This document shows positions 20,532 through 55,570 of a DNA stretch of 64,000 nucleotides, piece by piece; within the stretch, counting starts at the first letter, position 1; every line of letters starts with the position of its first letter. Position numbers and translations under genes: made by a program. The notes beneath the pieces are model-generated. The model made no database searches and had not been told where the DNA came from. It worked only from the letters and a program-made list of their open reading frames with translations. This DNA is from a virus (lineage: Duplodnaviria > Heunggongvirae > Uroviricota > Caudoviricetes). Location: the IMG/VR virus record IMGVR_UViG_3300031992_000020, one strand, 5' to 3'.

Positions 20532-21515
20532 TTATTTAATACTGTAGCCATATTCTTTGGCTTTGTAAAAGTCTTGCCAATAATCTTCTCTCTCATTTAG
20601 CTTAGATTGATCACATTCCTCTATAACTTCGAATGTAAATTTTTCTAAACCTTCTTGATACATTGCAGGATATAATTTATTTTGTGTGCGAGGCTCCGCG
20701 TTTAACGCCCTCTTAATATGTTGCCGCCAGCGATCTGCAATATCAACTGCTTGTCCAACATAACACATTTGTGTTTCGATGTTTGTGATGCGGTAAATAC
20801 CAGTATGTCGTCCGTTGCCTATGACTCGACCCACGAGATCGGTATATGGCTTTTCATAGTAGACTTTCCAGATAACTTTTGCAATAGCTTCTCCGGCTTC
20901 TTGCGATATGCTTGGCACAATCTCTTCAAGTCTTCGTATGTCATTAAGTGTGTGTGGCCCCATTTGTAGAGAATGGAACTTAATGAAATTTTCTTCTTCT
21001 GCATGACGTTTTGCAACCTCAACTGCTGCGCTTGCGGCAGATTTTAATTCACTTAATTTTTTATCAAGTTCTTTCGCGGCATCCATTTTACGACGATTAG
21101 TGTCTTTAAATTGTTCCGCAAAATCTTCTTGCATTTGAATATATTCTTCTTGCCTTTTGTCGATCCAAACTTGACGTTCTGTCAGATATTTCTTTTTAAA
21201 TTCTTCTTCAGTTAATTCATATGACTATTTTAATTTTTCAACATTTTCAACTTGAGTGGCAATATCATCATTTAGTTCTTTCTTGCGTGTTGCCAATTCA
21301 TCAATTTTGAATCTATGCTCTACAATCTGGTTAGTTAATTCATTATCTTGTACAGTTAATTGTTCTAATTTTTCTTTATACTAATTAACTTCATACTAAG
21401 CTGTATTTATACTTGCTTGTAATCCATTATACTATTGAATATTTTTTTTGACTAAATAACCTGATATGATAGTAGCAATAATGCCAATGACAAGAAGAGC
21501 AATAATGATCCACAT
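20532..21515 (-). CDS. TM helix, coiled-coil and GIY-YIG nuclease domain protein; contains 4 in-frame TAG codons (predicted sense)
   Basis: RBS GGAGGACAAT then ATG at 21515; single open frame continues into track ORF 20532..21134 through TAGs at about 21432, 21396, 21381 and 21225; GIY-YIG motif YVGQ..R..H. Confidence 0.55.
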
Positions 21516-21535
21516 ATTGTCCTCCAGTCTAAAAT

Positions 21536-21566
21536 AGGGGATTGATAAAGCCTACCAATCCCCCAT
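21536..21566 (-). terminator. rho-independent terminator (GGGGATTG/CAATCCCC stem then T tract)
   Basis: lies downstream of the 21585..21860 gene. Confidence 0.5.
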
Positions 21567-21584
21567 TTATTATTTACTTTTTAA

Positions 21585-21860
21585 TTACTCAGCTTCTTCG
21601 GCATTTACGTCGATAGCACGGCCAGCATCGGTGAGCTTGAGGAACTTAACCTTCTTGTGGGTGCCATCATCCAGCTCGATCTCAGCTTCCTCACGGACAC
21701 CAAGGCTCTTGCGCTGAATCGCAGAAGTGAAGATACCATCAACACTACGCTTCTCAAGTCCCAGAGCATCAGCCACATCAGCGGCAGTCACGTTGTCAGA
21801 AGCACTCAAACCCTGCAGATAAGTAATAACCTTCTTAGTATTTTCTTTCATAGCAGCCAT
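21585..21860 (-). CDS. hypothetical small DNA-binding-like protein
   Basis: ORF track; RBS GGAGAAAAAAG. Confidence 0.4.
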   Translation of the reverse strand: MAAMKENTKKVITYLQGLSASDNVTAADVADALGLEKRSVDGIFTSAIQRKSLGVREEAEIELDDGTHKKVKFLKLTDAGRAIDVNAEEAE

Positions 21861-21961
21861 AATCTTTTTTCTCCTTTTGCGCTTAAAGCGTCTTTAAATA
21901 ATGTATTGTATATTTATAATAATCTGAAGGATTTGCCTATCAGTTATTATCTATACAGATT

Positions 21962-21972
21962 ATACCATAATT
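21962..21972 (-). promoter_or_regulatory. extended -10 promoter TATGGTATAAT
   Basis: TRTGnTATAAT match on the minus strand upstream of the 21585..21860 gene. Confidence 0.4.
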
Positions 21973-21983
21973 TTTTTTCAAGA

Positions 21984-22184
21984 TCAAATATTTTTTTCTT
22001 TTAAATAATCTTGAACAAGTGTGTCAAGGGCAATCATGTCTTGAAGTTCTAGGTCTGCGGCTTCTTGTGCCTGCATCATACGATCTTTCGCTGTGTTAAC
22101 TTCATCACGATCTTGACTGGTCTGGATGGTATATTCCAGATCCGCGATTTTCTTAGCTAATTGTTTTAGCTGTTTCTTAGTCAC
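21984..22184 (-). CDS. hypothetical coiled-coil protein (GTG start)
   Basis: ORF track. Confidence 0.35.
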   Translation of the reverse strand: MTKKQLKQLAKKIADLEYTIQTSQDRDEVNTAKDRMMQAQEAADLELQDMIALDTLVQDYLKEKNI

Positions 22185-22219
22185 GGTAAGATTTTTTCCT
22201 TTCTTTATCTTACATACAT

Positions 22220-22248
22220 ATTATATTAAAAATTTTTATAAAAATCAA
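22220..22248 (-). promoter_or_regulatory. sigma70-type promoter TTGATT-17-TATAAT
   Basis: reverse complement reads TTGATTTTTATAAAAATTTTTAATATAAT. Confidence 0.6.
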
Positions 22249-22260
22249 CTAGTTTACGCA

Positions 22261-23439
22261 TCAACCGAATATAGAAGCTAATGTACACTCTGATGGGTTT
22301 TTATCATCACGAACGCGTTTAAAATGAAAATGTCTGAGTGTATGTGCTGTTCTATCTTTCTCCATTCCCGCAAGTTCACATACCTTGCCAACATATGATT
22401 TAAGATTGGCTTTATCGTCATCAGTTAATCCAGATGAAACTGTTCCAATAGAAATGAGTTTTCCTTCTGAATCATATGCGCCGATGCGAATTGCCGTATC
22501 CCAACCATAATACCATGCTTTTGTTACTGGTTTAGTTTCATATCCAGGTCCGCGCACTCGCTCAATCTGTCCAACAGGACATTTCTCATATAGTTTTGTA
22601 AAAGGACCAGAAGGCTCTTCTTCTGTATGAAAAATTGCCCAATATGGCCATTGATCAACATCTGGACCAATACCATTTTTACCAAGATCTAATTTTCCAT
22701 CATAAAGCATTGTCGCAGGTTCTGTACCAATAATTACAGCATCACAAGTATCTGTCTTTTTAATTTTGATGGTATCCCACGCTGGTCGCTTGCCAGGTGT
22801 ATATGGAGCAGTCCTCTTTTTAAGTACCATTCCCTCTTCACCTGCGGCAAGTGCAGCAGCCACAGCCTCTTGAATATTATCATCAACTCTTTCAGCAAGT
22901 TCTACAAGAGGAGCGCCTTCTTCCCAAACAGCATGAAATGAATATTTATAATAAACCAATTTCAAAAGATCATAACGTACATCTGCTCTTACTTTTGTTA
23001 AATCATGTCCATTGTAATAAATCATATCATGAACATAATAATGTAGATGCCCATATTCCCCATTTTGTCTTTCAATAGCTAATTCTGGAAGAGCACCCAT
23101 AATTGGTGTTACATCTTTACTTCTTTTACCAGGATAATAAATTTCACCAATAATAACAGTACCATTCGGCACTCCTTCAAGAGCTATAATAATTTCAGGT
23201 ACATTTGCAGATTTTTCAGTTAAAGTGCCTGTGAGCTTAGACACATTTCGGCTCCAAAGATACATATTGCCATCCATATCTTTTTCAAATTGATACCAAT
23301 ATCCATCTTTTTTCAACTGCGCGAAATACTCACCAGAAGCACAAATAGAGGGAAAGAGTGATTCTTTTCCCTCTGGGATTTTATTTATTTTCATTGGTTC
23401 TATACAAAGTGGTGTAGCCATATTATACCCTCGTCGCAC
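22261..23439 (-). CDS. ATP-dependent DNA ligase
   Basis: KxDG adenylation motif (LKKDGYW). Confidence 0.75.
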   Translation of the reverse strand: MRRGYNMATPLCIEPMKINKIPEGKESLFPSICASGEYFAQLKKDGYWYQFEKDMDGNMYLWSRNVSKLTGTLTEKSANVPEIIIALEGVPNGTVIIGEIYYPGKRSKDVTPIMGALPELAIERQNGEYGHLHYYVHDMIYYNGHDLTKVRADVRYDLLKLVYYKYSFHAVWEEGAPLVELAERVDDNIQEAVAAALAAGEEGMVLKKRTAPYTPGKRPAWDTIKIKKTDTCDAVIIGTEPATMLYDGKLDLGKNGIGPDVDQWPYWAIFHTEEEPSGPFTKLYEKCPVGQIERVRGPGYETKPVTKAWYYGWDTAIRIGAYDSEGKLISIGTVSSGLTDDDKANLKSYVGKVCELAGMEKDRTAHTLRHFHFKRVRDDKNPSECTLASIFG

Positions 23440-25864
23440 TTATTAAATTATTGTCTTTAATTAACTTAATCGTTGAACTTGTCCTGGATCCAAGAGTAAT
23501 GTCATCTGTACTTACACATATAGATCCAGTGCTGCCGCTAAGTAACAAGCTTCCAGAGCCTTCACCGAGGTATACTCCCGTGCAGATCTTGCCTGAATGA
23601 GTAATTTTAAGACCTTTGCCAGCTCTGTTCTGTTTAGTGAATTCATTGACCATAATTCTCTTCCCTGTTCCGTCGCTACAACCAATGAAAATCTGCCCGT
23701 TGGCATTGTTGATATTATTCGTCCCTGTCGATCCGAGATTGAATCCCACGGCTGCTTCATCGTCACTCGCAAGTTTGATTCCTTGAACGCCGACAGAAGT
23801 TCTTCCAGTAGCTCCAACTGTTGCTCCATCAAAACGAATACCCATGCCTTCCTTTGTTAATATAACAATATCACTATTGTCTCCAACCCAAACACTTATA
23901 ATTGCATCGCCTTCGCGCAAATTGAGCGCTTGAACACCGGCTTTACGTTTCGTTCCAATATATTCAGACAGGTTTGTCTTTTTAACTAAACCGCGTTTAG
24001 TGATAAACCAGACGAACTTTCCAGCATTTTCTGTTCTTGCAACTGAGGCGACTGCGGCCACTTGTTCCGTAGGTTCCATCTCCACTAACGTAGAAATCGC
24101 TACTCCACGTGTAGTTTGTGTTCCTTCTGGAATTGTATCTACACCAACTCTGTAAACTTTACCTTTGTTTGTAAAGGCTAACAATACATCCACTGTATTA
24201 GTTTCAATAGTAGCTAATGTGATATCATCTTGAGTTTTTACTCCTTTTCCGTTACGCTTTTGTACCTTAAAATTCTTTTTTGGCACACGCTTCACATTAC
24301 CGGCCTCTGTAACGACTACGACAACATCTTCCGGCACGATCTGAGCAATTTCTTTTTCTTCTTTTGTAACTTCAATGTGAGTAACTTTTGTTCTTCGCTC
24401 ATCAGCGAATTTATTAGCGAAAGCCTGCAATTCAGAGATTAGATCATTTTTGAAGATAGTTTCATCATTTAAACGTTTTACAATTAATGCTCTTTCTTCA
24501 TCTTTGTCTTTTCTCTCTTGTTCAATAGCCAACTTTTCCATATTGGCTAATCTGCTTAAAGTCATTCCAAGAATTGCATCTGCCTGTTCAATAGTGAAAT
24601 TGTATCTTTTCATTAACGCAGTATGCGCGGCAATCTTATCCTTGGATCCTTTAATTAATTTAATTACATTATCAATATCATCAAGAGCAGTACATAATCC
24701 ATCTAAAATATGGAGTCTTTGCTCTAATTTTCTTAATTCAAAATTATTTCTGCGGCGATATACTTCTTCTTGATGCAAAGCATAATACTTAATAATATCA
24801 ACTAAGGTAAGCTGTTTCGGCACTTTGTTTACCAGAGCAACCATGTTAACACTGAATGACGTTTCCAAATCAGTTAATTCATATAGCCTATTGGCTATTA
24901 CATCTGCGTTAACACCTTTTTCCAGTTCCACAATGAACCGTATTCCTTCTTTATTTGACGCGTCAAGTATCTCTCTAATTCCATCCAACTTTTTGGATTC
25001 ACAGAGCTCGTCAATTGATCCAGCCAACTCTTCCTTAGAGACTTTATAGGGTATTGAAGTAAATACCAATCTATCACGTTTATCGGCAGTTTGTTCGACG
25101 ATATATTCTCCGCGTAAGCGTACACGTCCCTTGCCAGTCTTATAGATGCCTGCGAGTTCCTTCTGGTTGATAATACAACCACCCGTTGGGAAGTCCGGCG
25201 CCTGAATGATATCTGCAAGCGCCGCATTGTCCGTCGCAGTTCCCCTAATGTATGCGGTGATTGCATCCATGACTGATCTAAGATTATGAGGGGCAAAATT
25301 GCATGCCATTGCGACAGCAATCCCAGTTGTTCCATTGCACAAGAGATTTGGGAATAATCCTGGAAGATATACTGGCTCATTTGAAGTTTCGTCGAAGTTT
25401 GGGATCCAATCAACTGTGTCTTTTTTGATTCCATCAAGTGTAGCCTCACTTATTTTGCTCAATCTACATTCAGTATATCTCATTGCGGCAGGCGGGTCTC
25501 CATCTCGGCTACCATTGTTACCATGGAATTCAATAAGCGGATATCGCATATTCCATGGCTGACTTGCGCCGACTAATGCGCCATATATCGAACTATCACC
25601 ATGCGGATGGTACTTGCCCATTGTGTCACCAACAGGCCGCGCGCACTTTACATAATTTTTATCGCTTTTATAGCCACTTTCAGCCATACACCAAAGGATT
25701 CGCCGCATAACAGGCTTTAATCCATCTTCTACTGCGGGAATTGCTCGATCTGTGATTACTGAAAGTGAATAATCAAGAAAGGATTGTTCAACCTCTTGGA
25801 CTATTGGGGCTTGAATAATATTATCCACAGTTACACGCCTTTCTAATCCTTTTGATTGTTTCAT
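23423..25864 (-). CDS. type II DNA topoisomerase, GyrA/ParC-like subunit
   Basis: YHPHGD active-site region; 813 aa. Confidence 0.85.
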   Translation of the reverse strand: MKQSKGLERRVTVDNIIQAPIVQEVEQSFLDYSLSVITDRAIPAVEDGLKPVMRRILWCMAESGYKSDKNYVKCARPVGDTMGKYHPHGDSSIYGALVGASQPWNMRYPLIEFHGNNGSRDGDPPAAMRYTECRLSKISEATLDGIKKDTVDWIPNFDETSNEPVYLPGLFPNLLCNGTTGIAVAMACNFAPHNLRSVMDAITAYIRGTATDNAALADIIQAPDFPTGGCIINQKELAGIYKTGKGRVRLRGEYIVEQTADKRDRLVFTSIPYKVSKEELAGSIDELCESKKLDGIREILDASNKEGIRFIVELEKGVNADVIANRLYELTDLETSFSVNMVALVNKVPKQLTLVDIIKYYALHQEEVYRRRNNFELRKLEQRLHILDGLCTALDDIDNVIKLIKGSKDKIAAHTALMKRYNFTIEQADAILGMTLSRLANMEKLAIEQERKDKDEERALIVKRLNDETIFKNDLISELQAFANKFADERRTKVTHIEVTKEEKEIAQIVPEDVVVVVTEAGNVKRVPKKNFKVQKRNGKGVKTQDDITLATIETNTVDVLLAFTNKGKVYRVGVDTIPEGTQTTRGVAISTLVEMEPTEQVAAVASVARTENAGKFVWFITKRGLVKKTNLSEYIGTKRKAGVQALNLREGDAIISVWVGDNSDIVILTKEGMGIRFDGATVGATGRTSVGVQGIKLASDDEAAVGFNLGSTGTNNINNANGQIFIGCSDGTGKRIMVNEFTKQNRAGKGLKITHSGKICTGVYLGEGSGSLLLSGSTGSICVSTDDITLGSRTSSTIKLIKDNNLISATRV

Positions 25865-26396
25865 CTACTGGATATTTCTTCATAGAATAATCCAAAAGGA
25901 TTTCACTTAATTCTATATTTATTTTATCATTTATTTCATCAATTTTCAACTCGTGATCATTTTTATCTATAATAATTGCTCCTGTTGCTAATTTATCAGC
26001 AATTTCATTATATGTATGACCACTATGACCCTTAACTTTTTCAATAGATACATAAGGATTTTTGAAAAATGGAATCAATAGCTCCCAAAGCTCTTTATTA
26101 GCCACAGGCTCTTTCTTACTATTGATCCATCCATTATTTTCCCAATTAATATACCATTTATCATTATAGCAGTTTACCAAATATGCGCTATCACTATAAA
26201 TAACACAAACTGCGGAAGGTTCATATTCACTCCAAAATTTGAGCGCTTCATATGCTGCTCTGAGTTCCATTCGTTGATTGGTTGCATTTGGCTCTGTGCC
26301 TTGCAGCCGCATAATTTCTTCACCATAATGTATGCCAATAACGCCCCAACCACTACGACTTTTCGTTGCAGAGCCATCTGTGTAAAACTCAATCAT
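25821..26396 (-). CDS. rnh: ribonuclease H
   Basis: RNase HI-like acidic catalytic residues (DGS..G...E..E..A). Confidence 0.75.
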   Translation of the reverse strand: MIEFYTDGSATKSRSGWGVIGIHYGEEIMRLQGTEPNATNQRMELRAAYEALKFWSEYEPSAVCVIYSDSAYLVNCYNDKWYINWENNGWINSKKEPVANKELWELLIPFFKNPYVSIEKVKGHSGHTYNEIADKLATGAIIIDKNDHELKIDEINDKINIELSEILLDYSMKKYPVDETIKRIRKACNCG

Positions 26397-28324
26397 ACGT
26401 CAATATTCGCTCTAAAAGCGTTCTCCTCAATAAATTTTTTACGCATAGTTGCTGATTCGCCCATTAATGCGTTAAATGTATTACTTGCAGCAACCACATC
26501 TTCCATTGTAATTCGTTTTAATGTTCTAGACGCTGGCGCCATCGTTGACTCTGCTAACTCATCAACTGACTGCTCGCCCAAACCTTTAAAACGACGAAGT
26601 TCATAATTACTGCCAGGATTGTTTTTACGGTATTCAGCAAGAGCAGCATCATCTTTAATATAGAATGAGTTTTTACCCTTGATAATTCTATATAGCGGAG
26701 GCACTGCCGCATAAATATATCCTTTTTCAATCAACTCTGGGCAAAATTTCCATATAAATGTTAAGAACAAACAACGAATATGTTCACCATCAACATCAGC
26801 ATCGCTCATGATGATGATTTTGCCATAACGAAGTTTAGATTCATCCAAAATAACCTTATTGTTTTGAATTTGCAATCCAAAACCAACAATCATAGATTTA
26901 ATTTCTTCGTTGGCCATTGCCTTTGATAAATCCGCTTTAAGGACATTAAGAATCTTACCTCTGATAGGAAGGATCGCCTGGGTATCTCGATTGCGAGCTT
27001 CTTTTGCCGAGCCAGCTGCTGAATCTCCTTCGACGATAAAGACTTCGCAATCACTACGTTTCCTATTTGAACAATCCGCCAATTTCCCAGGTAATGTAAT
27101 GCGATTAGCCTTTCCTGCGACACTCCGAACAGTTTCCTTAGCTTTACGGGCTTTGTCACGAGCTGTTCTTGCGAGGACAGCTTTTCCAATAATTGCTTTT
27201 GCATCTTTCTCATGTGCATTAAGCCAGTCAGCGATGGATTGTGAGCAAAGTCGCTGAACAACAGTTCTTCCTTCTGCACTTGTTAAAACTCCTTTTGTCT
27301 GTCCACTAAATACTGGATCGGGCATCGTTAAACTTAAAACAAGAATTAATCCTTCTTTTAAATCTTCACCTGTGAAGTTTTCATCTTTTTCTTTCAATAA
27401 ACCTTTTGCTCTTGCATATACATTAATCGCTTGTGTAAAAGCTGTGCGGAAGCCAGTTAAGTGAGTGCCTCCTGTGTTCGGTATACTATTTGTAAAGATA
27501 CGATATGTATCACTAAATTGATCGGTATATTGGAGGGCTACCCGTACTCTCATTCTATTTTCAATATTCTCTGCATAGAATGGAATAGTTAATTTATTCT
27601 TTCCTTTTGTTAATGAATCAAGATAATCAAGAAGTCCATTCTCGCTGAAAATCTCTTCTGTCTCTTGGCCATTGGAAAGAGTAAAATGCAATCCCGGAGA
27701 CAAATATGCTAATTCCCAAAGTTGTTTGCGGATTCGGTTATAATCTGCATTTAAATCAACGTCTTTAAATATCGTTTCATCAGGAATAAATTGCACAATT
27801 GTTCCATGTTCAATTTTATCAGTTGCATATTTTTTAGGGTCTCGCGCACGAACTTCAAACTTTACAAGTTCGCCTTTTGCAAATAAAGCATATGCACGCT
27901 TATTATCTCTAAAACTTTCAACTGAAAAAAGACTTGACAATGCATTGGTCGCTTTTGCGCCAACACCATTCATACCACCAGAAGTATTATACCCACTATT
28001 GCCATCGCTATCGAACTTAGCGCCAGTATGCAACTTAGTATAAATATTAACCAGGACTTCTTCGCCCTCATCATTCTTACCAAAGGGGACTCCTCGGCCA
28101 TTGTCAGCCACGATAACCCGAGGCCCATCAAGACTAACAGATATCCGATCACAAGCACCAACCAAGTACTCGTCAACTGCATTAGAAATAATTTCTAGCG
28201 TAATCTGCCACACACCTTCGGCATCGACAGCGCCAATATACATTCCAGGGCGAGTACGGATGGCTTCCATACCTTCAAGTGTTTTTATGTCTTTAACGCC
28301 ATAATCTAATTCTGGAATAGCCAT
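26393..28324 (-). CDS. type II DNA topoisomerase, GyrB/ParE-like ATPase subunit
   Basis: GHKL ATPase and TOPRIM motif EGDSAGG. Confidence 0.85.
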   Translation of the reverse strand: MAIPELDYGVKDIKTLEGMEAIRTRPGMYIGAVDAEGVWQITLEIISNAVDEYLVGACDRISVSLDGPRVIVADNGRGVPFGKNDEGEEVLVNIYTKLHTGAKFDSDGNSGYNTSGGMNGVGAKATNALSSLFSVESFRDNKRAYALFAKGELVKFEVRARDPKKYATDKIEHGTIVQFIPDETIFKDVDLNADYNRIRKQLWELAYLSPGLHFTLSNGQETEEIFSENGLLDYLDSLTKGKNKLTIPFYAENIENRMRVRVALQYTDQFSDTYRIFTNSIPNTGGTHLTGFRTAFTQAINVYARAKGLLKEKDENFTGEDLKEGLILVLSLTMPDPVFSGQTKGVLTSAEGRTVVQRLCSQSIADWLNAHEKDAKAIIGKAVLARTARDKARKAKETVRSVAGKANRITLPGKLADCSNRKRSDCEVFIVEGDSAAGSAKEARNRDTQAILPIRGKILNVLKADLSKAMANEEIKSMIVGFGLQIQNNKVILDESKLRYGKIIIMSDADVDGEHIRCLFLTFIWKFCPELIEKGYIYAAVPPLYRIIKGKNSFYIKDDAALAEYRKNNPGSNYELRRFKGLGEQSVDELAESTMAPASRTLKRITMEDVVAASNTFNALMGESATMRKKFIEENAFRANIDV

Positions 28325-32732: not shown

Positions 32733-33335
32733 TTACTCTTGCGGGTAGACATTATAGATACCAGTAGGAGCAATAGGAAGTCTACCCAAAGCATCCCATC
32801 TGTTCCTTATATCTGTAATTACCTCGTCGATATGCACAGGCGTACTATTATGTGAGTCCATACCGACGTGGTACATAAAAGGGTTGTCAGCAAACAACCA
32901 ATTTCCTTTTTGATGCGTGTGTCCATGGAGATTGATTACATGTCTGCTGAAATGTTTATCATCATGGTTGGCAGTCAGGACAGGATAATGGCATAGAAAC
33001 AGCGAAAGTTTGCCGAACTTTATAAGTTCGCTGGTATGTACATTAGTGTCAGCCAATTTCCCTGTCGCGGCGATGTCGCGCAACTTATTATCGGTGTCGT
33101 GATTCCCTCGGATTAGGTGAATCGTCCCATTTAGGCGCTGAAGAATACTAACATCATAGTGACTCATCAGCACGTCACCCAGATGATAAACTGTGTCATT
33201 CGGTTTTACTACGCTATTCCAGCGTTCTATAATTGCCTCGTTCATCTCATCAAAAGATTCAAAACCACGAGGCTTATAAAGGAAGTCTTGGACATGATAG
33301 AAATGAGTGTCCGATGTAAACCAAATCTCACTCAC
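32733..33335 (-). CDS. metallophosphoesterase
   Basis: calcineurin-like motifs GD..D..GNHD. Confidence 0.55.
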   Translation of the reverse strand: MSEIWFTSDTHFYHVQDFLYKPRGFESFDEMNEAIIERWNSVVKPNDTVYHLGDVLMSHYDVSILQRLNGTIHLIRGNHDTDNKLRDIAATGKLADTNVHTSELIKFGKLSLFLCHYPVLTANHDDKHFSRHVINLHGHTHQKGNWLFADNPFMYHVGMDSHNSTPVHIDEVITDIRNRWDALGRLPIAPTGIYNVYPQE

Positions 33336-33801
33336 GAATAATCCAAACCCCCTTTACATTCTCAAATTCTCCAATATAAGGAGTAGATAAAGACTTATAC
33401 ATATTCTGTATAGTCGGTGCAGTTACAAATGCGCGGCCTTCCCGCAGACTATCGCGGCGAATACATTCATTAATAGGAGTATCCATCATAATGAATATAA
33501 TATCATACTTGTCTGCGGTCACCTGTCTCTTCGCTAAGGCACGAACCAACTTGTGGCGAGCCCCATGAGAAAGATGAGTAGCATCAGCAACCATATCGTG
33601 ACCGTTGAGCAAACCATCAGCGAGGATATCAACGAACTTGTCATAAACTTCATCCTCATGAGCAAAAATGTATTCGTTGTCCTTGACGATAGAGAGCCGC
33701 ACAATATCACGAGAAATATAATTCACATTGTGAAGATGAGCCTTTGCAAAAGTAGACTTACCACTTCCTGGAACTCCTACCATCACATACAACGTAGACA
33801 T
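33328..33801 (-). CDS. P-loop kinase (polynucleotide-kinase-like)
   Basis: Walker A GVPGSGKST. Confidence 0.45.
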   Translation of the reverse strand: MSTLYVMVGVPGSGKSTFAKAHLHNVNYISRDIVRLSIVKDNEYIFAHEDEVYDKFVDILADGLLNGHDMVADATHLSHGARHKLVRALAKRQVTADKYDIIFIMMDTPINECIRRDSLREGRAFVTAPTIQNMYKSLSTPYIGEFENVKGVWIIRE

Positions 33802-33802
33802 T

Positions 33803-34099
33803 TTACTTCAATCCTTTCAGATAATTTTGATATTTAGGATGCTGGCGTTCATATTCCAGCTCTTCTTCGGCCTCTTGTTTATATTTACCTTCTGCAAAGT
33901 CTGCCAGAAATTGTGCTTTTTCAAGTTCATTTCGACATTCAATATGATTTACGGTGTGCTTACAATGCCAACAATACATCAATTTTCTATGAAAAGCTCC
34001 ATGCTGATTTGATTGCTGGCGAGTCAATGGAATCCCTTTTTCACCGCAGTTAATGCAATAAAAATCATGAGTCGTAAAACTGTTAGCTCTTTTTCCCAT
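33803..34099 (-). CDS. hypothetical zinc-ribbon protein
   Basis: CINCG..CWHC. Confidence 0.35.
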   Translation of the reverse strand: MGKRANSFTTHDFYCINCGEKGIPLTRQQSNQHGAFHRKLMYCWHCKHTVNHIECRNELEKAQFLADFAEGKYKQEAEEELEYERQHPKYQNYLKGLK

Positions 34100-34100
34100 T

Positions 34101-34247: not shown

Positions 34248-34276
34248 ATTATATCATATAATTTTAAAATTTTCAA
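34248..34276 (-). promoter_or_regulatory. sigma70-type promoter TTGAAA-17-TATAAT
   Basis: reverse complement reads TTGAAAATTTTAAAATTATATGATATAAT. Confidence 0.6.
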
Positions 34277-35141
34277 ATCCGATTTCTACGGCACGCTTGC
34301 TGTCCTGCATATGCACATCTCGGTCATAGAATCCGGTCACATTCATAGTCAGACAGTTTAACACATATCCACGACCATAAAATGTCATTCCAGTATCCAT
34401 ACCAATGTGCCAACCACTTGTGTCGCCATCTTTATAAGTAGAGCGATAAGCAACAGGCCGCATGTTGCGTTCATGCTGGAATTCAGCAGGAGTGGAATCA
34501 CTTAGATAACAAGTAGGAGTATGCCCAAATACAATAATTTTATCTTCTGGCCAACAGGCATTTAATAAAGAACGATCCCAAATCATTTCATTGTAATCAT
34601 CTTTATCAATTAAATCTCCATTATATTCGCAGTCATTCACACGCTGCCATGCTTCATATGATCCACCTGCATGGCTAAAACATATAGGAGCTTGAAATTG
34701 TGAATCTAACTGAAAAGTAACGACAGTTTCATTTTCTAACCGATTAATAAATTCTGTACTTGCTCCATCAATTAACCAATCTTTTAGAGTGGATCGACCT
34801 CCATTATATAAATGAAGTCCAGTATAATGAAGCCAGTGGCACCAACCAATAATTTCATTAGCTTCGTCAATAGTATGAGTTTTATTAGCTACTTCTGGAT
34901 ACTGACTGATAATTTCACGAGCCGCATGAATAAATATATCTTCATGATTGCCGCGAATATAAACCATCTGCGGATCATCAAGAATGGCTTCCATAATATC
35001 CATGCCAAACGGACCGCGATCACAAGCATCGCCGCCATAAATAATCATACACTCTGGATCTTGTTTTAAGCACCAATCGCGCATAGTTTGAAACAAATCA
35101 AGTTGACCATGCACATCAGTAAAATAAAAAATATCGTGCAT
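34254..35141 (-). CDS. Ser/Thr-phosphatase-like metallophosphatase
   Basis: GD..D..GNHE motifs. Confidence 0.55.
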   Translation of the reverse strand: MHDIFYFTDVHGQLDLFQTMRDWCLKQDPECMIIYGGDACDRGPFGMDIMEAILDDPQMVYIRGNHEDIFIHAAREIISQYPEVANKTHTIDEANEIIGWCHWLHYTGLHLYNGGRSTLKDWLIDGASTEFINRLENETVVTFQLDSQFQAPICFSHAGGSYEAWQRVNDCEYNGDLIDKDDYNEMIWDRSLLNACWPEDKIIVFGHTPTCYLSDSTPAEFQHERNMRPVAYRSTYKDGDTSGWHIGMDTGMTFYGRGYVLNCLTMNVTGFYDRDVHMQDSKRAVEIGFENFKII

Positions 35142-35872: not shown

Positions 35873-35882
35873 ATAGAAAAGG

Positions 35883-36295: not shown

Positions 36296-36762
36296 TATTC
36301 TACCTCATCTAAAGTTTTTGCAGTATTCAATAGGATCTGCTTTAATTGGTCAGTCATTTTAAAACGTGCGGCATTTACTTCAATAGAAGTTAAGAGATTA
36401 CCATTGTGCTGACGTTCACTTGCGGCTTTCCAATCAGCAAGCATTTCGACCAGATCAATTAAATTCATATCATTGATTCCATTTGCAAAATGCTCAGGAT
36501 GATGACGATATGTAGCATAATGATGATCCAGCGCCGGTTTCAGACCAGTTAGGCACTGTTTGTATTCTTCGCTATTGTATTCAGTGGTAGCAAGTTTAGG
36601 AGTATATTCAGCAAAAAGCTCTACTTCCGGGGATTCCAGCTTGGCGGCGTCATGATTGACGCCGCGGCTGGTCAATTTATCAGTGAAAAACCGAATATAT
36701 TTTCGGACTTTTTCAATATGTTTCTGTGTTTCAACACGACATTCATCAAGCGTCATCGTCAA
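36295..36762 (-). CDS. hypothetical protein
   Basis: ORF track. Confidence 0.35.
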   Translation of the reverse strand: MTMTLDECRVETQKHIEKVRKYIRFFTDKLTSRGVNHDAAKLESPEVELFAEYTPKLATTEYNSEEYKQCLTGLKPALDHHYATYRHHPEHFANGINDMNLIDLVEMLADWKAASERQHNGNLLTSIEVNAARFKMTDQLKQILLNTAKTLDEVE

Positions 36763-38149
36763 GTACCTCCTGGGCTTCTTCGATGTCAGGCGCAGTTGCT
36801 TCGTCCTTTGCGATACCTTCCAGTACCTTGAAAGAGAAGTTCTTGTGCTTGTATACAGCGAAGTTAGAACGGTTAAGGATACGGGCTACTACGCCTTCGC
36901 GCACATGGGTCTTACCAATAGGATCAGGCCCATCGAAATACTTCTCTACCTTACGGAGAACATATTCGCCGGCATTTACTTCGCATGGAGACCCAACATC
37001 GTCTGGAAGCTGAATCATATCAGGAATTATGAAGGTTTCAAACTCCATAACAGTATGTACACCCATCTGCTCACAACGTTCCTTGATCTGAGTAGGAGAA
37101 TATTCTACCACATCACCATCTTCGTTGACCATAGTCATACGATAGACATATACGTCACAACAAGGCTCAAAGTAAGCCAGAGTTCCGGTCTCATCGTAAT
37201 AAGCACCATCGTAACCATTGCTTGCATCGCATCCATAAGAGAAAGTAGTAGTAGATCCATACTGCTTTACGAACTCAGGATCCTTTACCTTGCTGTTAGC
37301 AACCTGAGACATAATAGGCGCACCCTTAGGCCCCTGGAAACCAACAATCTCGTAATAAACTACTTCACCCTTGCGGAGCTTGTTTTCAAACTTAGCCGCC
37401 ATAGCCATACGGAAATTATCAGAATCATAGAATCCACCAGAACGCTTTCCATCCAGGACAACACGACGAGTTCCAGTGATGTATCCATACTCCTTATAGT
37501 CCTTACCATGACGATGGAACAGTTTATCGAGCCAGGTCTGCTTGGTATGAACCAAAGGCAGATATCCAGTACGACCAGAAGTACCATGCATTTTCAAAGT
37601 AAGCTGAACAGTGTCGCCAGGCTTGAATGCATTCATGTTATAGGCAAGCTGTGCAGTATCAACATGCTCATAGAAAGTAGGAGCAATGTTAGCTTTTGCC
37701 TTCTTAGCAGTCTTAGATCCAGGCGCGCCAGGAGTGCGAGACTTATGAGGGATATACTTCTGACAGATCAATTCACCATTCAGAGTATCAATAGTGTCTC
37801 CAACCTTCAAATCAGAAATCTTGCAGAAATCAGCCAAACAGGTGAGAGGCATATAAAGACCATCGGACTTCTCGCCACGGAGCTTCAATGCCTTGATATT
37901 GCGCTTCTCAGGGTCCAGATATCCGCCAGCCTGCTTGCCATTTTCATCCTTGCGGCGAACCAGATCATTTACCGCGCAAAAGCGCTCAGAAAGCTGACCA
38001 TCAACAGGGAAATATACGCCAATATCCCCGATCTTGGTGTCAAGACCAACAATAGTGTCATTACCGAAGAAAGTAGCAATTTGAAGACGATCAGCATTAG
38101 AGTGCTTGCGCAGATGCTCAACTCTTACAACAAAACCAGTATATGCCAT
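36746..38149 (-). CDS. hypothetical protein, possible nucleotidyltransferase/RNA-ligase-like with a tRNA-binding-like N-terminus
   Basis: 467 aa; KMHGTS motif I-like; weak evidence. Confidence 0.3.
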   Translation of the reverse strand: MAYTGFVVRVEHLRKHSNADRLQIATFFGNDTIVGLDTKIGDIGVYFPVDGQLSERFCAVNDLVRRKDENGKQAGGYLDPEKRNIKALKLRGEKSDGLYMPLTCLADFCKISDLKVGDTIDTLNGELICQKYIPHKSRTPGAPGSKTAKKAKANIAPTFYEHVDTAQLAYNMNAFKPGDTVQLTLKMHGTSGRTGYLPLVHTKQTWLDKLFHRHGKDYKEYGYITGTRRVVLDGKRSGGFYDSDNFRMAMAAKFENKLRKGEVVYYEIVGFQGPKGAPIMSQVANSKVKDPEFVKQYGSTTTFSYGCDASNGYDGAYYDETGTLAYFEPCCDVYVYRMTMVNEDGDVVEYSPTQIKERCEQMGVHTVMEFETFIIPDMIQLPDDVGSPCEVNAGEYVLRKVEKYFDGPDPIGKTHVREGVVARILNRSNFAVYKHKNFSFKVLEGIAKDEATAPDIEEAQEVLDDDA

Positions 38150-44658: not shown

Positions 44659-45339
44659 TTATTGTGCCTCCTCAACTGTGCCTTCTGCGGCGATCGGTTC
44701 ATCCGCGTTTTCTTCTGGCTCAGGATCATCAATAGAACGCATACCTTCATAGATTGACTGATCAACCTGTCCCGCATCCGCAGATGTAGGTACAACCATA
44801 CTATGTTCGGTATCTTCACTTGGAGTTTCATCCTGGATACCAAGTCTGCGGCAAAGGTCATTAATACGATCTTCCAACATAACAAGAGGACCATCTAATG
44901 ACATAATGCTGTCTAACGTGTCTACGTTTTTCTGGATAATCTTGGCGTGCGCATCAATTACATCAGCCATACTGTTCCAACGCTCTTTTGCTGACTCAAA
45001 TTCAGAAAACATTGCGGACAGAGCTAAGATCGCATCAGCGCCGCTATCAATATCTTCTTGCAGAGCATCCTCTACATTCTTTTCGATTTTGGAGGTAATA
45101 AACTCAATTTCAATCTGGCGCGGCTGTCCTTCATATTTAGTAACCCGCATGGAAGAAATGCCTTTGTTGTAATAGCGCTGAGTCTCTTCGTCTCCTTCGA
45201 AAACACTAATAACACTTACTGTGTCGCCAGGCGACATAGCAGCTTCTGCATCAGCAATGCTCATATCTCCCTAAATAGTGAGCATGCTTCCGCTCCATTG
45301 TACATCTTCATACAAAGTATCATTAACTTTTACATTCAT
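44659..45339 (-). CDS. hypothetical (structural?) protein with one in-frame TAG (45271-45273)
   Basis: ATG at 45339 with RBS AAAGGA; the frame runs into track ORF 44659..45264 through the TAG. Confidence 0.45.
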
Positions 45340-50168: not shown

Positions 50169-50477
50169 TCAGCTTTTTTCTTTATCGGTACTTTTTCCTT
50201 TGCGAGGAACAGTTTCTTTTAAAAATTGCTTACGCAAATTTCGTGCTGAATTTTTATTTCTTGATTTAAATGTTGGCAATTGACTATCACAATTAGGGCA
50301 TATCAAACGTAAGTTGTCTTTTGTAGAATTAGCAGCATTTCCATCAATATGATCTAATACAAAATGTAATTCTTGATTATTCCATATATCAGGTATACCA
50401 CAAATAGCACATTTATGTTCTTGTTGATCTAAAATGTATTCACGAATAACGCCACGTATAGTTGTGTCAACAGACAT
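50169..50477 (-). CDS. HNH endonuclease
   Basis: CAICG..HHIDG..N..CPNCD motifs. Confidence 0.55.
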   Translation of the reverse strand: MSVDTTIRGVIREYILDQQEHKCAICGIPDIWNNQELHFVLDHIDGNAANSTKDNLRLICPNCDSQLPTFKSRNKNSARNLRKQFLKETVPRKGKSTDKEKS

Positions 50478-50630
50478 TCCTGTATTTCCAGAATTTAACC
50501 ATGTATTAAGTTTTTCTTCTCTTCTTTGTAGAACAATGCAAGTAGAACAGTAACCAGACTAATTCTTTTTACATAATTCTTTTCCGCATCTTTTACAATT
50601 CATAAATATCCTCAATATAACAAAAAAATG

Positions 50631-51186: not shown

Positions 51187-54057
51187 TCAGTCAAAGCAAT
51201 CTCCAACCTGATTAATCATAACCTCTACACCAAGAGGAGTATCATAATCAGTTATAATGTACATCGGAGTGCCGGGCAGCTTAGGTTGCGGCTGATCTGG
51301 CGGAATAATAGGTCTTTCATATGGACGATTTATAAATGTCATAACATTACCTTGTTGTGTCTGACTTTCCATATGATAGCCAAGCACAGTATATTCTCGC
51401 CATTCGTATTGTATTTCAGTACCATCGTCATTATATTGAGGTACTTCAACAGTAACAAACCAATCATTGTCCGCGCTCAACTTTACGCTCTTGATATGCA
51501 CACCATCTGCAAACAATTTTACATGTATAGCACTTGGCCGCAAAAGATCATAACCCTCATCATTCCATATCTTGCGAATACCTATCACCGTTGTAGGAAC
51601 GTCTTCTGGAATATCAATTATAGTCGTAGGTACAGGAGTTACTGATGGAATTGGATCCGGAGTAAGCGTTGGACGTGGTGTGCGCACAGGCTCCGGCGTT
51701 GGGCTAGGCGTAGCAGTTGGTGTAACGACTGGCTTGGGCGTCGGGGTGCTTGTTGGCGCAGGAGTAATTCTGGTATTTTCAAAATGAAGAGTGTAAATAT
51801 CCTTATCAAAAATACCATTCTCATTTGCTGGCACATGGATAACTGCAACATTTGCCGCGCGTTCTTCGCCAGGCGCGGGTGTTACAGTTGTCAAAGCTGA
51901 ATCATCTGAAATATAAATATTAGATATGAAATAATTATCATGTGAATCAATTTCAGTGATTGTATAATCGCCTGGGATAATCTTACCAAATCCTCTGTGA
52001 TTATCATAAATCACAAATTTATCTATTTCAGAATTGGCATTGAACTCTACTTTTGCTTCTACACCATCTGGGAAACTTGGTCCTGTGATAATAAATCTAA
52101 AATCAACAGGAACATTATCGTACTCTTTCAAATGTTTTTCAATTCTAAATCCACCAATAGGAGGAGTTGCTGTGGGCGCAGGTGTATATGTAGGGGTTGG
52201 CCGCACAGTTGGAGTAATTGTAGGAGTAGCCGTAGGCGTTGGGCTAGGAGTTACTGAAATAGTAGGAGTTGGTGTACTCGTAGGAGTCGGACTTGGAGTT
52301 ATTGTAGGTGTCACCGTAGGAGTAGGTGACGGAGTTATAGTTGGAGTAGGACTCGGTGTAACCGTAGGTGTAGGTGTTGGAGTTGGGGTTACAGTAGGAG
52401 TCGGACTTGGAGTAGGAGTAATTGTCGGTGTAGGACTTGGAGTTGCTGTTGGAGTAGGGCTAGGTGTTGGAGTTGGTGTAGGTGTTGGAGTTGGTGTAGG
52501 TGTAATTGTCGGAGTTGGACTTGGAGTTGGTGTAGGAGTAGGTGTTGGCGTTGCTGTTGGGGTAGGTGATGGAGTAGGAGTTACAGAATATTCAACTGCG
52601 GGTAATGGGAAATCTTGGATTTTATTATCTTGTGGAGTATATAAAGTCGCAGTTGTATTTGTCAAAAGTGGAATACCACCTTGTGATCCATTAAAATCAT
52701 ATGTGCCATATTCACCAGCAACAGTTTGTGGATTACTTAATTTAATGCTATAATGTAATTCCACAGAATCACAGAGCAATAGATTAGTATTAATAATCCA
52801 CTTAAATGAATCGTTTTCTTCTTCACCGTAATATATTAATGTAAATAAATCGCCAAAATGGAATGTGATATTATCACTAGTCGTAGCATTAATACGTTCG
52901 CCATTCCAAATTACATACATTCTACTTGCGTCTGGAATAAAATCCATATCATATTCATTACCGAGATTATCAATTCCAGAACCCATATAGTCCTTTACAT
53001 AGCTTCCAGTAGTAACATATGATATTTCTTTACCAATATTGCTTAATGAAAAGCTTCTGCCGCAATTCAAATATTGCATAAAAGATTGGGCATATTGGCT
53101 TGTTCTATAAGAGAAATCACCGCTATCAACATAAACTGCATAGCAATTATAACCATGCTGTTGCGCAGTTGCATAAGAAAGCATTGCATAATATAATGCT
53201 TTATCGGAAGACACAGCATGAGTAGATAGATTTCCTCTAATGTAACTGGTAGCACCATTATAGTAGTTACGAGGATCCCATCCCCACGTCTGTTCAAACA
53301 AATCTTGATCACGATTAATGGCTTGCGCCACTTCTACAAAATAATCATACCAACTTGCTGGTGCGGCGTAGGTACCATATTTGAATAAATATGTATCTGG
53401 TCCAGCGACTATATTACCATCATGCTCTTGGACTACGACAGTCTCTCCTGCTGTTTTAGTCCCACTTAAACCAAGTTGATTGTTCTTTTGATATACGTGA
53501 GTATCACCATCGCTAAGTATAATTAAATACTTATTAGATGCAGGTACTCCAGCATGATTGTCAAGCATATAAGTGCCTGTCAAGATACCTGAATTCAGAT
53601 TTGTGCCGCGATGGGTATATTGAGAAGGATGGTTCTTTGCTATCACAGTACCATCCAGTTGCCGATAAATTTTGGACTTACCATAAAAATATACTATTCC
53701 GACATTAATGTCATCTCTAGTATCAGCTGCAGACATATATTGCTGTAATAAATGCTCTGCCGCATTATCAATAGACAAGGAAGCATCTACTACAAATACA
53801 ATATCATATACATCAACACTAGTGGTAGGTATTTTCAACATGATGTTTGACTCATAGTTTTCATCCAAATTAGTAGCCGTTTTAGAAACGGCTACTTTAT
53901 TTAGATTCACAGATGAAATAGTAGGTACATATACCTCGCCACTATCTATTGTTATTTCTGGAGTATATTCATCGCTTTCTATCGCTGTCTCAGCAATACC
54001 AGCAAATGGCATCATTGCAAGTGCTATTGCTAACAATATTGCTAAAAATCTTTTCAT
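51187..54057 (-). CDS. secreted vWA-domain protein with a long Pro/Thr-rich repeat linker (adhesin or cell-wall-binding-like)
   Basis: signal peptide [20 protein letters not shown]; MIDAS VVDASLS; (TP/SP)n tract. Confidence 0.55.
51640..52570 (-). repeat. coding tandem repeat encoding (T/S)P-(T/A)P units
   Basis: ggtgtaggtgttggagttgg-type periodic repeats inside the 956-aa ORF. Confidence 0.7.
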
Positions 54058-54074
54058 AATATATTACCCCATAA

Positions 54075-54464
54075 TTATTCGCTAATTGTTACGGTAACTC
54101 TAAATGTCCAATCTACGTTGTCTGCGTTTAGGTCAAAGCTATAAGTTTCTCCGCTACCAACGGATTCCCAGTCGCCGCCGCCCTTTTTGGCCTGCCAATT
54201 ATAAGATACACTATAACTTGACAAGTCATAATATTCTGGGTGCTCTGTGGTAATATTAGCAGTAAGAGTTATTGTGGTGCCAACAGCCAAAGTCTGACCG
54301 GCCTGCGCGCAACTAATTGATACTGCCCAACCTGGATCCGGCAAAGAGATCGTGATATTAGGGTCAAATTCTGAGCTTGTCGCAGAACCTTCTGCCAAAC
54401 CCATAGGTGCAAAAGTGAAGCATAACATAAGTGCTGTGAGAAATGCAAAAAGTCTTTTCATAAA
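54075..54464 (-). CDS. secreted hypothetical protein
   Basis: signal peptide MKRLFAFLTALMLCFTFAPMGLA. Confidence 0.4.
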   Translation of the reverse strand, partial: FMKRLFAFLTALMLCFTFAPMGLAEGSATSSEFDPNITISLPDPGWAVSISCAQAGQTLAVGTTITLTANITTEHPEYYDLSSYSVSYNWQAKKGGGDWESVGSGETYSFDLNADNVDWTFRVTVTISE

Positions 54465-54514
54465 CGTAAATCTCCTTTCTAAAATAAAAATAGACTTTAT
54501 TGATATAAAGTCTA

Positions 54515-54955
54515 TTACTTGTATAATTGATATTTCTTTGAAATTTTCCATGCGGTTTCATCGTCCAACGGGCGGAAACCTATACAAGTAAGAGTGCGGC
54601 CAGTGCCATCATCATCGACCATCTCTGGTTTCAATTCTGTAAGACACGCGTCCCATATGAGGAAAAAGTCTACACCTTCCCGCAACCCAAGCTCTTCGGC
54701 TATTGTTTTGACTTTAAGTAATTGTTTTAAGTTTTTAGCTTCGCAAACGGTTTTTGTAAATATGCCGTTAAACCAATCTTCATAAACATCTTTTTGGATT
54801 GTAAGCCCAACATAATAGTCATTGCTTAGACCCATTTTCTGCCCATTACCGCGAATTGCGCGTGATATAAACGCGATTGATGCATGGGCAACCTGCGCCG
54901 CAAGTTTTCCAGGTGACATTTGAAGATCTTTGCGAGCTATAATAAGTTGACGCAT
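54515..54955 (-). CDS. PTH2-family peptidyl-tRNA hydrolase
   Basis: GKLAAQVAHAS motif typical of Pth2; RBS AAGGAG. Confidence 0.5.
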   Translation of the reverse strand: MRQLIIARKDLQMSPGKLAAQVAHASIAFISRAIRGNGQKMGLSNDYYVGLTIQKDVYEDWFNGIFTKTVCEAKNLKQLLKVKTIAEELGLREGVDFFLIWDACLTELKPEMVDDDGTGRTLTCIGFRPLDDETAWKISKKYQLYK

Positions 54956-55021
54956 AAACTAGACTCCTTTCTATGGAGCGAATTAATAAAGTCGCAATAA
55001 TATAATTTGCTGCATGAGCCT

Positions 55022-55070
55022 AATAGCAGTCCCTGTTGGGATCGAACCAACACATACGGAGTCAATTAAG
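55022..55070 (-). pseudogene. tRNA-Gln 3-prime fragment (anticodon-loop remnant to acceptor 3-prime strand), no CCA
   Basis: TTGACTCC..GTTGGTTCGATCCCAAC AGGGACT resembles the 3-prime two-thirds of the adjacent tRNA-Gln; no 5-prime partner. Confidence 0.35.
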
Positions 55071-55144
55071 CTGGGGTGGTTGGATTCGAACCAACGATGC
55101 AGGAGTCAAAGTCCTGTGCCTTCGACCAACTTGGCGACACCCCA
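55071..55144 (-). tRNA. tRNA-Gln(TTG)
   Basis: acceptor TGGGGTG/CACCCCA, loop CTTTGAC. Confidence 0.8.
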
Positions 55145-55570
55145 TTATTTTAGAAACTCATCAATTGTGATTCCTTCTTCTTTTTCAAGGAAATGAAATA
55201 CACGATGGTAATTAGCACATAAGCATACACATTTATCAATTTCAGATAAGGCACGCTCTAAACTATATTTAGCTGCGATCATTCGTGCAACTGTGGTATC
55301 TTTTTGACTTGGATCTAAATGATGAAAATCTAAAGCTGTTGGATATTCATTATATCCACATTTAGCACAAGATAAATCCTATTTAATTTCTCCTATTGCT
55401 TGTCGTTTTTCTTTATATTTTTCTTTCATATAATTACTATGACAAGTTTTACATTCAGAACGCCTAGTTCCTTTTGCTTTATCACGCCAAGCAAAATCAT
55501 CTATAGATTTTTCTATACCACATTTTGTACATATTTTAGTTTCCATTAAATCAACTCCTTGCGCTACCAT
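55145..55570 (-). CDS. HNH homing endonuclease with one in-frame TAG (55379-55381)
   Basis: an N-terminal zinc finger and C-terminal HNH motifs (CAKCG..HHLD..N..H) lie in one frame separated only by TAG; TAA stop abuts tRNA-Gln. Confidence 0.6.

Follow-up and report, generated by a model that had tools for sequence, protein, structure and literature searches.

The subject of this study is the codon TAG in a 64,000-nucleotide stretch of phage DNA, here called the window (IMG/VR virus record IMGVR_UViG_3300031992_000020, Caudoviricetes). As judged from the coding sequences and their homologues, TAG has very probably been reassigned in this phage from stop to glutamine (genetic code 15). The recoding is light. 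In-frame TAGs number 23 in 11 genes, equivalent to ~3.8% of the Gln-type codons, and a suppressor tRNA with the anticodon CUA, tRNA(CUA), is encoded by the phage itself. The phage is a lightly recoded member of the known code-15 (TAG to Gln) phages, and the unusual element of the system is the family of suppressor tRNAs with an extra arm. The source is a large phage, of at least ~120 kb, and its origin is apparently the rumen. A Megablast search with 24 kb against 50,697 phage records produced no match, and no terminase gene was found within the window. An earlier sequence-only reading had proposed that the amber codon was reassigned from stop to sense with the help of a phage suppressor tRNA, and this core interpretation is supported.

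Genes were modeled using a codon-score model trained on long open reading frames (ORFs), with only TAA and TGA counted as stops. The G+C content of the window is 38%, and the minus strand carries every convincing gene. There were 69 gene models, every one on the minus strand; 45 ended in TAA, 24 in TGA and none in TAG, as the sequence-only reading had claimed. If TAG comprised 10% of stops, the chance of finding no TAG stops in 68 genes would be ~8e-4. The adjoining contig, L015, was examined through its public gene calls. All complete genes (17/17) ended in TAA or TGA and none (0/17) in TAG. Re-calling the genes with TAG as sense, which the sequence-only reading had recommended, increased the coding fraction of the window from 78.6% to 81.8%.

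Eighteen of the 23 in-frame TAGs lie in 10 genes between 20.5 and 55.6 kb, where at least 10 genes had been predicted to contain them. Two of these 18 sites are ambiguous, as a plausible start codon follows the TAG (45273, 50561). The other five TAGs are in the gene for a RuvC-type resolvase. Fibre-like genes on the opposite strand and unannotated genes beyond window position 1 contain 1–3 TAGs each, and all end in TAA or TGA. Since RuvC and the genes beyond position 1 also carry TAGs, the recoding is wider than the interval covered by the first reading.

The amino acid at the TAG sites was examined using alignments with homologues, a comparison that the sequence-only reading had also put forward. 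PhoH2, which has three TAGs, was aligned with 120 full-length, uninterrupted homologues that are 40–88% identical. Column 224, a window TAG, contained Gln in 120/120 homologues, as did column 232, the site of a TAG in a relative. Of the 25 closest homologues, most had Gln in column 282. Column 66 contained Gln or Arg. In RuvC, codon 84 was matched by Gln in 90/119 homologues and codon 21 by Gln in 15/17 of the closest. RuvC codons 127 and 135 were matched by Q, A or E, and codon 35 was variable. Of the uninterrupted homologues of the tyrosine recombinase, the two closest (83% and 75% identity) have Gln in the TAG column. A zinc (Zn)-ribbon nuclease has an internal repeat in which one copy reads HWLC-TAG-CDCGN and the other VWLCQCDCGN. 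Among relative-specific TAGs, 6/7 were opposite a Gln in the window, and the window TAG at 28847 was opposite CAA in relatives with ~87% identity. Both TAG columns of the SH3 hydrolase were variable among homologues and uninformative with regard to the amino acid. None of the TAG columns was dominated by Ser or Trp. The protein database already lists the RuvC and recombinase of this phage with Q at TAG (P0121, P0241).

The TAGs were then compared between assemblies and between relatives. L015, a 106 kb contig in ENA, is 99.98% identical to window positions 1–10644. Three more assemblies from other samples are 98.4–100% identical to L015. The TAG sites are common to all four independent assemblies, which speaks against sequencing or assembly error, a finding that by its own account would have refuted the sequence-only reading. 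The only TAG polymorphisms among these assemblies are CAG↔TAG and CAA↔TAG exchanges. IMG/VR relatives with ~87% protein identity have seven TAGs in PhoH2, two of them at the window's codons. The TAG-bearing genes contain zero frameshifts and zero in-frame TAA or TGA codons. Relatives found through a 941-aa protein are mosaic across 41–57 kb and added no extra TAG pairs there.

Continuity of the individual genes across TAG was assessed with Pfam, PHROG and homologue alignments (table 1). The sequence-only reading had joined a PIN domain and a PhoH ATPase into PhoH2 through three TAGs. This is borne out by the Pfam PhoH match, residues 217–412, which crosses two of them. Its extension of ClpP through one TAG agrees with relatives that align over residues 1–206 with 88% identity; these have ACA at codon 12 and a TAG at window Q20. 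A GIY-YIG protein was said to run through four TAGs, and the homologue in relative L001 indeed aligned over residues 1–327 as a single high-scoring segment pair (67% identity). The L001 protein has sense codons at the four window TAG sites and a TAG of its own at window Q249; the Pfam GIY-YIG domain comprises residues 239–321. The Zn-ribbon nuclease and the 133-aa HNH endonuclease are likewise continuous as proposed. A PHROG 374 match (residues 3–64) crosses the TAG of the former, and a PHROG 2255 match (residues 2–124) is unbroken over the TAG of the latter.

The tyrosine recombinase had been predicted to regain an N-terminal core-binding domain, and this prediction was correct. Pfam identified Phage_integrase and SAM_4 domains, the latter at residues 63–141. 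The next start codon past the TAG is codon 125, and a restart there would delete the greater part of the core-binding domain. In 111/119 homologues the N-terminal arm is at least 40 aa long. No relative of the recombinase was found in IMG/VR. The public gene call for RuvC on L015 is a 170-aa product with a PF02075 match and Gln at 5/5 TAGs. A spurious plus-strand ORF of 136 aa (852–1262) overlaps RuvC, and standard-code gene callers choose it on contigs L016 and L018.

The hydrolase, structural and fibre genes of the sequence-only reading do contain in-frame TAGs, but the labels 'NlpC/P60', 'structural protein' and 'tail fibre' were not confirmed by the Pfam and PHROG scans. The putative hydrolase has a Pfam SH3_3 domain (residues 184–233) that crosses its second TAG, and 95 homologues are uninterrupted over both TAG columns. 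The 218-aa fibre-like protein had no Pfam or PHROG family match and was accepted on ORF continuity and coding score only. The 226-aa protein, also without a Pfam or PHROG match, was accepted on ORF continuity only, and an ATG at 45264 with GGGAG upstream, directly after the TAG, may be its real start. In the small HNH endonuclease the TAG is 14 codons past a weak start. The true start is probably 50477, which would place this TAG upstream of the gene.

TAG is not distributed evenly. A block of the minus strand contains 14 TAG-free enzymes of replication and nucleotide metabolism: dUTPase, NrdG, NrdD, guanylate kinase, Pol III alpha, an SF1 helicase, RecJ, a Toprim protein, DnaB, AAA_24, ligase, GyrA, RNase H and GyrB. 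It is interrupted only by the GIY-YIG gene. The 14 enzymes have 0 TAG/210 Gln codons and all other genes have 23 TAG/378 Gln codons (Fisher p = 6e-5), the enzyme set having been defined by function and not by gene block. The TAG carriers include PhoH2, ClpP, RuvC, the recombinase and the homing endonucleases. The sequence-only reading held that recoding affects replication and housekeeping genes. PhoH2, ClpP, RuvC and the recombinase are affected, but in view of the counts above the claim is wrong for the core replication machinery. In recoded gut and cattle phages the genes for structure and lysis are recoded and the replication genes often are not, a switch attributed to suppressor tRNAs (10.1101/2021.08.26.457843). 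With early and late classes drawn from gene function only, the distribution of TAG fits this published model of standard-code replication genes and recoded later genes.

Homing-type nucleases, at least five in number (two GIY-YIG and three HNH), are scattered through the window, most of them with TAGs. One of the 14 enzymes, NrdD, was called in two pieces on L016, a strain with 98.4% identity. About 160 bp there (L016:5894–6057, corresponding to window ~4588–4745) had no alignment to the window, which a small insertion, an intron or local divergence may explain.

The window contains 26 tRNA genes at 50.6–64 kb. The tRNA(CUA) has the canonical 7/4/5/5 cloverleaf, to which an extra arm of ~20 nt (CCUCU-GAA-GGAGG) is added, and its minimum free energy fold is a five-arm cloverleaf. 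A 4-bp D stem carries a 7-nt D loop. The anticodon stem has 5 positions including a C27·U43 mismatch. The acceptor end has an A1·C72 mismatch, G2-C71, C3-G70 and G73, and position 38 is A. Nine homologues were obtained from IMG/VR contigs of 23–193 kb. Over these, 13 compensated pairs were found, and a covariation score as high as the observed one came up in 0/500 shuffles. Compensatory changes accompany the drift of the acceptor, D and T stems, while the nine do not vary in the anticodon arm or in most of the extra arm. The tRNA(CUA) is under structural selection.

A wider scan found the same extra arm in 17 contigs and the anticodon CUA in all 20 variants with a readable 5' half. The 1:72 pair in ~20 variants was A·C, A-U, U-A, U·U or G·U and never G-C. 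G10 and U35 were invariant, and G73 was present in all but two variants. Most variants have C3-G70, with G3-C70 restricted to some relatives (L009, L011, L020, L024, L027 and L029). Four variants have the acceptor stem UGGGGCG...CGCCCUA-G, a near match to UGGGGUG...CACCCCA-G of the phage tRNA-Gln. The extra-arm tRNA pattern was absent from 185,579 GTDB reference genomes, which provides no host link either way. A non-exhaustive literature search produced no description of a suppressor tRNA with such an extra arm.

The extra arm (window 58213–58235), UAUAUCCCUCUGAAGGAGGUAGU, is nearly invariant in at least 17 contigs. It pairs a CCUC resembling the anti-Shine-Dalgarno (SD) sequence with a GGAGG resembling the SD sequence, a likeness that may be due to chance or may be a functional mimic. 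The gene for a free-standing GIY-YIG homing endonuclease (57509–58153, minus strand) starts 26 nt downstream of the suppressor tRNA.

Which synthetase is likely to charge the tRNA was considered from its identity elements. The identity set of glutaminyl-tRNA synthetase (GlnRS) in E. coli comprises a weak or open 1:72 pair, G73, G10, U35, G2-C71, G3-C70 and U38. The tRNA(CUA) has the weak 1:72 pair, G73, G10, U35 and G2-C71; it lacks G3-C70, U38 and a 4–5 nt variable loop. The sequence-only reading had called it a non-Gln suppressor tRNA. Its shape is certainly non-canonical. As a claim on function the label is not supported, since the codon evidence indicates Gln and the 1:72 pair, G73 and U35 are of the GlnRS type. 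We infer that it is a Gln suppressor in function, yet no canonical tRNA-Gln.

Once the arm is removed, the closest phage tRNA is tRNA-Trp(CCA), which has the same D arm, A1-U72 and G73. The anticodon loops of the two differ only by C35→U35. In E. coli, amber suppressors derived from tRNA-Trp lose recognition by tryptophanyl-tRNA synthetase (TrpRS) and are charged by GlnRS (PMC2965240). One of these is su+7, a tRNA-Trp(CUA) charged by GlnRS, as cited in the same paper. The phage tRNA resembles su+7 and supE, a tRNA-Gln(CUA), in its CUA anticodon, its A1 or weak 1:72 pair and G73, and insertion of Gln at UAG would be expected. It is unlike them in the ~20-nt insertion that forms the extra arm and in usually having the A1·C72 mismatch.

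Two other identities were considered and rejected. ARAGORN labeled the gene tRNA-Pyl, because of the CUA anticodon only. In tRNA-Pyl the variable loop has 3 nt, the D loop is shortened and the anticodon stem has 6 bp, and pylS and pylBCD genes accompany it. The phage tRNA combines a long extra arm with a D loop of 7 nt and an anticodon stem of 5 positions, and no Pyl genes were found among the scanned window proteins. A class II identity was suggested by the long variable stem-loop arm, as in tRNAs for Ser, Leu and Tyr (supD, supP and supF), and by the G73 and G2-C71 shared with tRNA-Ser. However, a supD-like tRNA would have a G1-C72/G2-C71 acceptor end and a 3-bp D stem with an enlarged D loop. 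The 4-bp D stem and 7-nt D loop of the phage tRNA are of the class I kind, its 1:72 pair is never G-C, and similarity to the phage's own Ser, Leu and Tyr tRNAs is limited to generic positions. The TAG columns are not Ser, Leu or Tyr, as a class II suppressor would require, and no Ser-dominated column supports a supD-like Ser identity.

In four relatives an insert of 175–297 nt interrupts the tRNA(CUA) gene after U35, with U as the last nucleotide of the 5' exon and G as that of the insert. Rfam matched Intron_gpI to two inserts (50.5 bits in L025 and 46 bits in L027) and nothing to the two shortest (175–176 nt). From these features the inserts look like group I introns in the anticodon loop of the suppressor. 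They resemble the group I introns of cyanobacterial and plastid tRNA-Leu(UAA), which are also anticodon-loop inserts. Unlike that case, splicing in the relatives is predicted from sequence, and the phage studied here has a copy without an intron. At the gathering threshold, Rfam found only tRNAs in the window and no ribozyme or intron beside the suppressor.

The extra arm could be a dedicated determinant that binds a phage factor, acts as an anti-determinant against TrpRS or an anticodon nuclease, or aids competition with release factor 1 (RF1). Together with intron splicing it could also contribute to the timing of a code switch. On this reading the novelty would lie in the suppressor lineage itself, with its Trp/Gln-like body and an anticodon arm and extra arm that are near-invariant in at least 20 phage contigs; we consider the reading unlikely. 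A second tRNA of a class I isotype with an added variable arm is the 86-nt tRNA-His(GUG) (59468–59553, minus strand), which has a 4-bp extra arm. Taken with the tRNA(CUA), it suggests that the phage lineage tolerates or favours variable-arm insertions.

A mechanism can be proposed in which the phage would supply its own tRNA(CUA) to read UAG, and host GlnRS would most likely charge it with Gln. The tRNA body would be a tRNA-Trp whose anticodon CCA became CUA, the classical route to a GlnRS substrate. GlnRS and other class I synthetases reach the acceptor stem from its minor-groove side, and the variable region is turned towards the solvent. The extra arm therefore need not block charging. Genes with TAGs would yield a useful product only after the suppressor tRNA had appeared and could compete with host RF1. 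The TAG-free replication enzymes would be open to translation as soon as infection begins. The charging enzyme, the efficiency of read-through and its timing are the parts that we infer.

Several observations weigh against Gln reassignment by this route. Many Firmicutes lack GlnRS. No amidotransferase was found among ~45 window proteins scanned with Pfam and PHROG, the window being part of the genome. The same scan found no release factor, aminoacyl-tRNA synthetase or RF1 inhibitor; the sequence-only reading had advised a search for RF2 or RF1-targeting genes, and among these proteins that search was negative. The extra arm, G73 and G2-C71 could attract seryl-tRNA synthetase, and C3-G70 prevails among the variants. 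The amino acid was deduced from alignments only, and variable columns pair TAG with E, K, D, T, H, Y and V besides Q. One relative's TAG (PhoH2 column 131) is opposite Trp in its two closest homologues. Finally, the recombinase has a TAG, unlike the integrases of published temperate recoded phages, which are TAG-free (10.1101/2021.08.26.457843).

The most serious alternative is that TAG has a dual meaning, with RF1 mostly terminating and partial read-through, so that TAGs would mainly attenuate accessory or potentially toxic genes (homing nucleases, PIN-PhoH2, protease, resolvase). We regard this as possible but tentative, and it is partly compatible with reassignment to Gln. The sparseness of TAG (23, or 3.8% of Gln-type codons), its concentration in nucleases and other dosage-sensitive genes, its absence from long, highly needed enzymes, and the lack of an RF2 or RF1-directed function among the scanned window proteins are all as attenuation would predict. 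The complete absence of TAG terminators is not, as this is expected only with efficient read-through. Genes with 3–5 TAGs (PhoH2, RuvC and GIY-YIG) would also need efficient read-through for any real product, and invariant Gln positions in catalytic domains are written as TAG. A host bacterium that itself reads TAG as sense, with the phage mirroring it, deserves hardly any credence. Absence of the tRNA-arm pattern from the reference genomes is neutral on this point. A host-matched code would make it needless to keep TAG out of the replication enzymes. The phage has its own tRNA(CUA), and close uninterrupted homologues (88% and 83% identity) use ordinary Gln codons. We know of no bacteria with TAG as Gln. 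Code-25 hosts reassign TGA (10.1101/2021.08.26.457843).

Decoding of TAG as another residue is very unlikely. Trp is suggested by the Trp-like body with A1 and G73, tRNA-Trp(CCA) being the nearest phage tRNA, and by the one relative's TAG aligned with Trp in two homologues. Ser is suggested by G73, G2-C71 and an extra arm that recalls class II tRNAs. Against both, neither Ser nor Trp dominates any column, Gln fills two TAG columns in 120/120 homologues, and the nearest homologues have Gln in several others. The exchange partners among strains are CAA and CAG, not TGG or TCG. The D stem and loop are unlike those of the bacterial class II tRNAs of the same phage, and C35→U35 abolishes TrpRS recognition in E. 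coli (PMC2965240). The remaining possibility, that the interrupted genes are decaying pseudogenes or that the TAGs are sequencing or assembly errors, is effectively refuted already and its probability is negligible. Decay is common in selfish homing endonucleases, to which several of the affected genes belong, and some TAG-bearing proteins have no known family. Nevertheless, identical TAGs occur in four assemblies and conserved TAG positions in relatives with 87% identity, the reading frames are free of frameshifts and of in-frame TAA and TGA, domain matches and homologue alignments continue over the TAGs, and TAG terminators are missing.

Reassignment of TAG to Gln is known from gut and rumen phages of the crAss-like, Lak, Garnet, Amethyst, Sapphire, Agate and Topaz clades (Borges et al., 10.1101/2021.08.26.457843), and was validated by proteomics in crAss-like phages (PMC9523058). 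The phage studied here shares with them in-frame TAG at Gln positions, the absence of TAG stops and a phage tRNA(CUA), as well as standard-code replication genes with recoded later or accessory genes. Large genomes, cattle or gut samples, and close relatives that differ in the degree of recoding are also common to both. Unlike the phages of the code-15 survey, its gain in coding density is below the 5% and 10% thresholds (10.1101/2021.08.26.457843), its recombinase contains TAG, and its suppressor tRNA has an extra arm.

TAG to Gln phages were already known, and a public gene-calling pipeline had applied code 15 to this same phage. The finding is solid and useful for annotation. The standard code splits or loses at least 11 window genes, including PhoH2, RuvC, ClpP and the recombinase. 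As the gain in coding density is only ~3 points, density-based screens could miss lightly recoded phages. The results add a large, rumen-type phage to the code-15 set and support the model in which the host can read the replication genes as they stand and the remaining genes depend on the arrival of the suppressor tRNA. A conserved tRNA with an extra arm, a weak 1:72 pair and, in some relatives, an apparent intron offers a natural setting in which to study how a tRNA of non-canonical body turns into a Gln adaptor.

Table 1. TAG-bearing genes, tRNAs and other features. TAG positions are window coordinates of the first base.
Feature	Coordinates	Strand	TAG codons (positions)	Remarks
RuvC-type resolvase, 170 aa	649..1161	-	five TAGs (1101, 1059, 912, 783, 759)	
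Block holding 14 TAG-free replication/nucleotide-metabolism genes	1112..28324	-		Pfam, public calls on L015, codon counts
GIY-YIG-domain membrane/coiled-coil protein, 327 aa	20532..21515	-	28, 40, 45, 97 (21434, 21398, 21383, 21227)	
PhoH2 (PIN + PhoH ATPase), 422 aa	28422..29690	-	66, 224, 282 (29495, 29021, 28847)	
ClpP-family protease, 209 aa	29665..30294	-	12 (30261)	Pfam CLP_protease
Zn-ribbon/HNH-type homing nuclease, 240 aa	41148..41870	-	34 (41771)	
Putative cell-wall hydrolase, C-terminal SH3, 236 aa	43623..44333	-	14, 211 (44294, 43703)	
226-aa protein, no assigned function	44659..45339	-	23 (45273)	ORF continuity only
Tyrosine recombinase (XerC/D-like), 339 aa	46230..47249	-	59 (47075)	
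Ser/Thr/Asn-rich fibre-like protein, 218 aa	48701..49357	-	32, 145, 201 (49264, 48925, 48757)	
Small HNH endonuclease	50169..50603	-	(50561)	Ambiguous
HNH endonuclease, 133 aa	55145..55546	-	56 (55381)	
tRNA, anticodon CUA, 90 nt	58180..58269	-		ARAGORN; Rfam tRNA 55.4 bits
Ordinary tRNA-Gln(UUG) of the phage	55070..55144	-		U1-A72, G2-C71, G3-C70, G73; comparison for suppressor acceptor
Split tRNA(CUA) genes in related IMG/VR phages	L020:7584-7850; L025:461-760; L027:4365-4750; L028:5562-5830			
RNA-ligase-like protein	36746..38149	-		Weak Pfam matches, E = 3e-4 to 7e-4, below cut-off
AAA_33 kinase	33328..33801	-		
Metallophosphatase	34254..35141	-		
Metallophosphatase	32733..33335	-		Just below Pfam cut-off

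Other features of the neighbourhood were recorded. A peptidyl-tRNA hydrolase of the PTH2 type (54515–54955, minus strand; Pfam E = 2e-21) lies within the tRNA-array region, and might handle peptidyl-tRNA drop-off and so could bear on stop-codon suppression. A cluster resembling tRNA or RNA repair genes (32733–38149, minus strand) comprises the RNA-ligase-like protein, the AAA_33 kinase and the two metallophosphatases of table 1, and would suggest a defence against host anticodon nucleases. The 941-aa protein (51187–54012, minus strand), located between tRNA genes, has internal repeats and a Cna_B domain. It is 84–93% identical in relatives over the first 505–567 residues, and the length of the repeat region varies.

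Structured RNAs were also detected. Sub-threshold YrlA-like matches were found at 56121–56234 (minus strand) beside tRNA-Pro and at L020:10390–10494 (36 bits, gathering threshold 69), and may represent a tRNA-like module and not a true YrlA. In relative L027, the end of a ROOL RNA at positions 1–168, clipped by the start of the locus, scored 98.1 bits against a gathering threshold of 99.1, and a cow-rumen-4 RNA at 7943–8066 scored 73.1 bits, above its threshold of 48.5. A cow-rumen-3 match at L020:7110–7174 was sub-threshold (72 bits against 86.7). The ROOL and cow-rumen RNAs in these relatives point to a rumen origin of the phage group.

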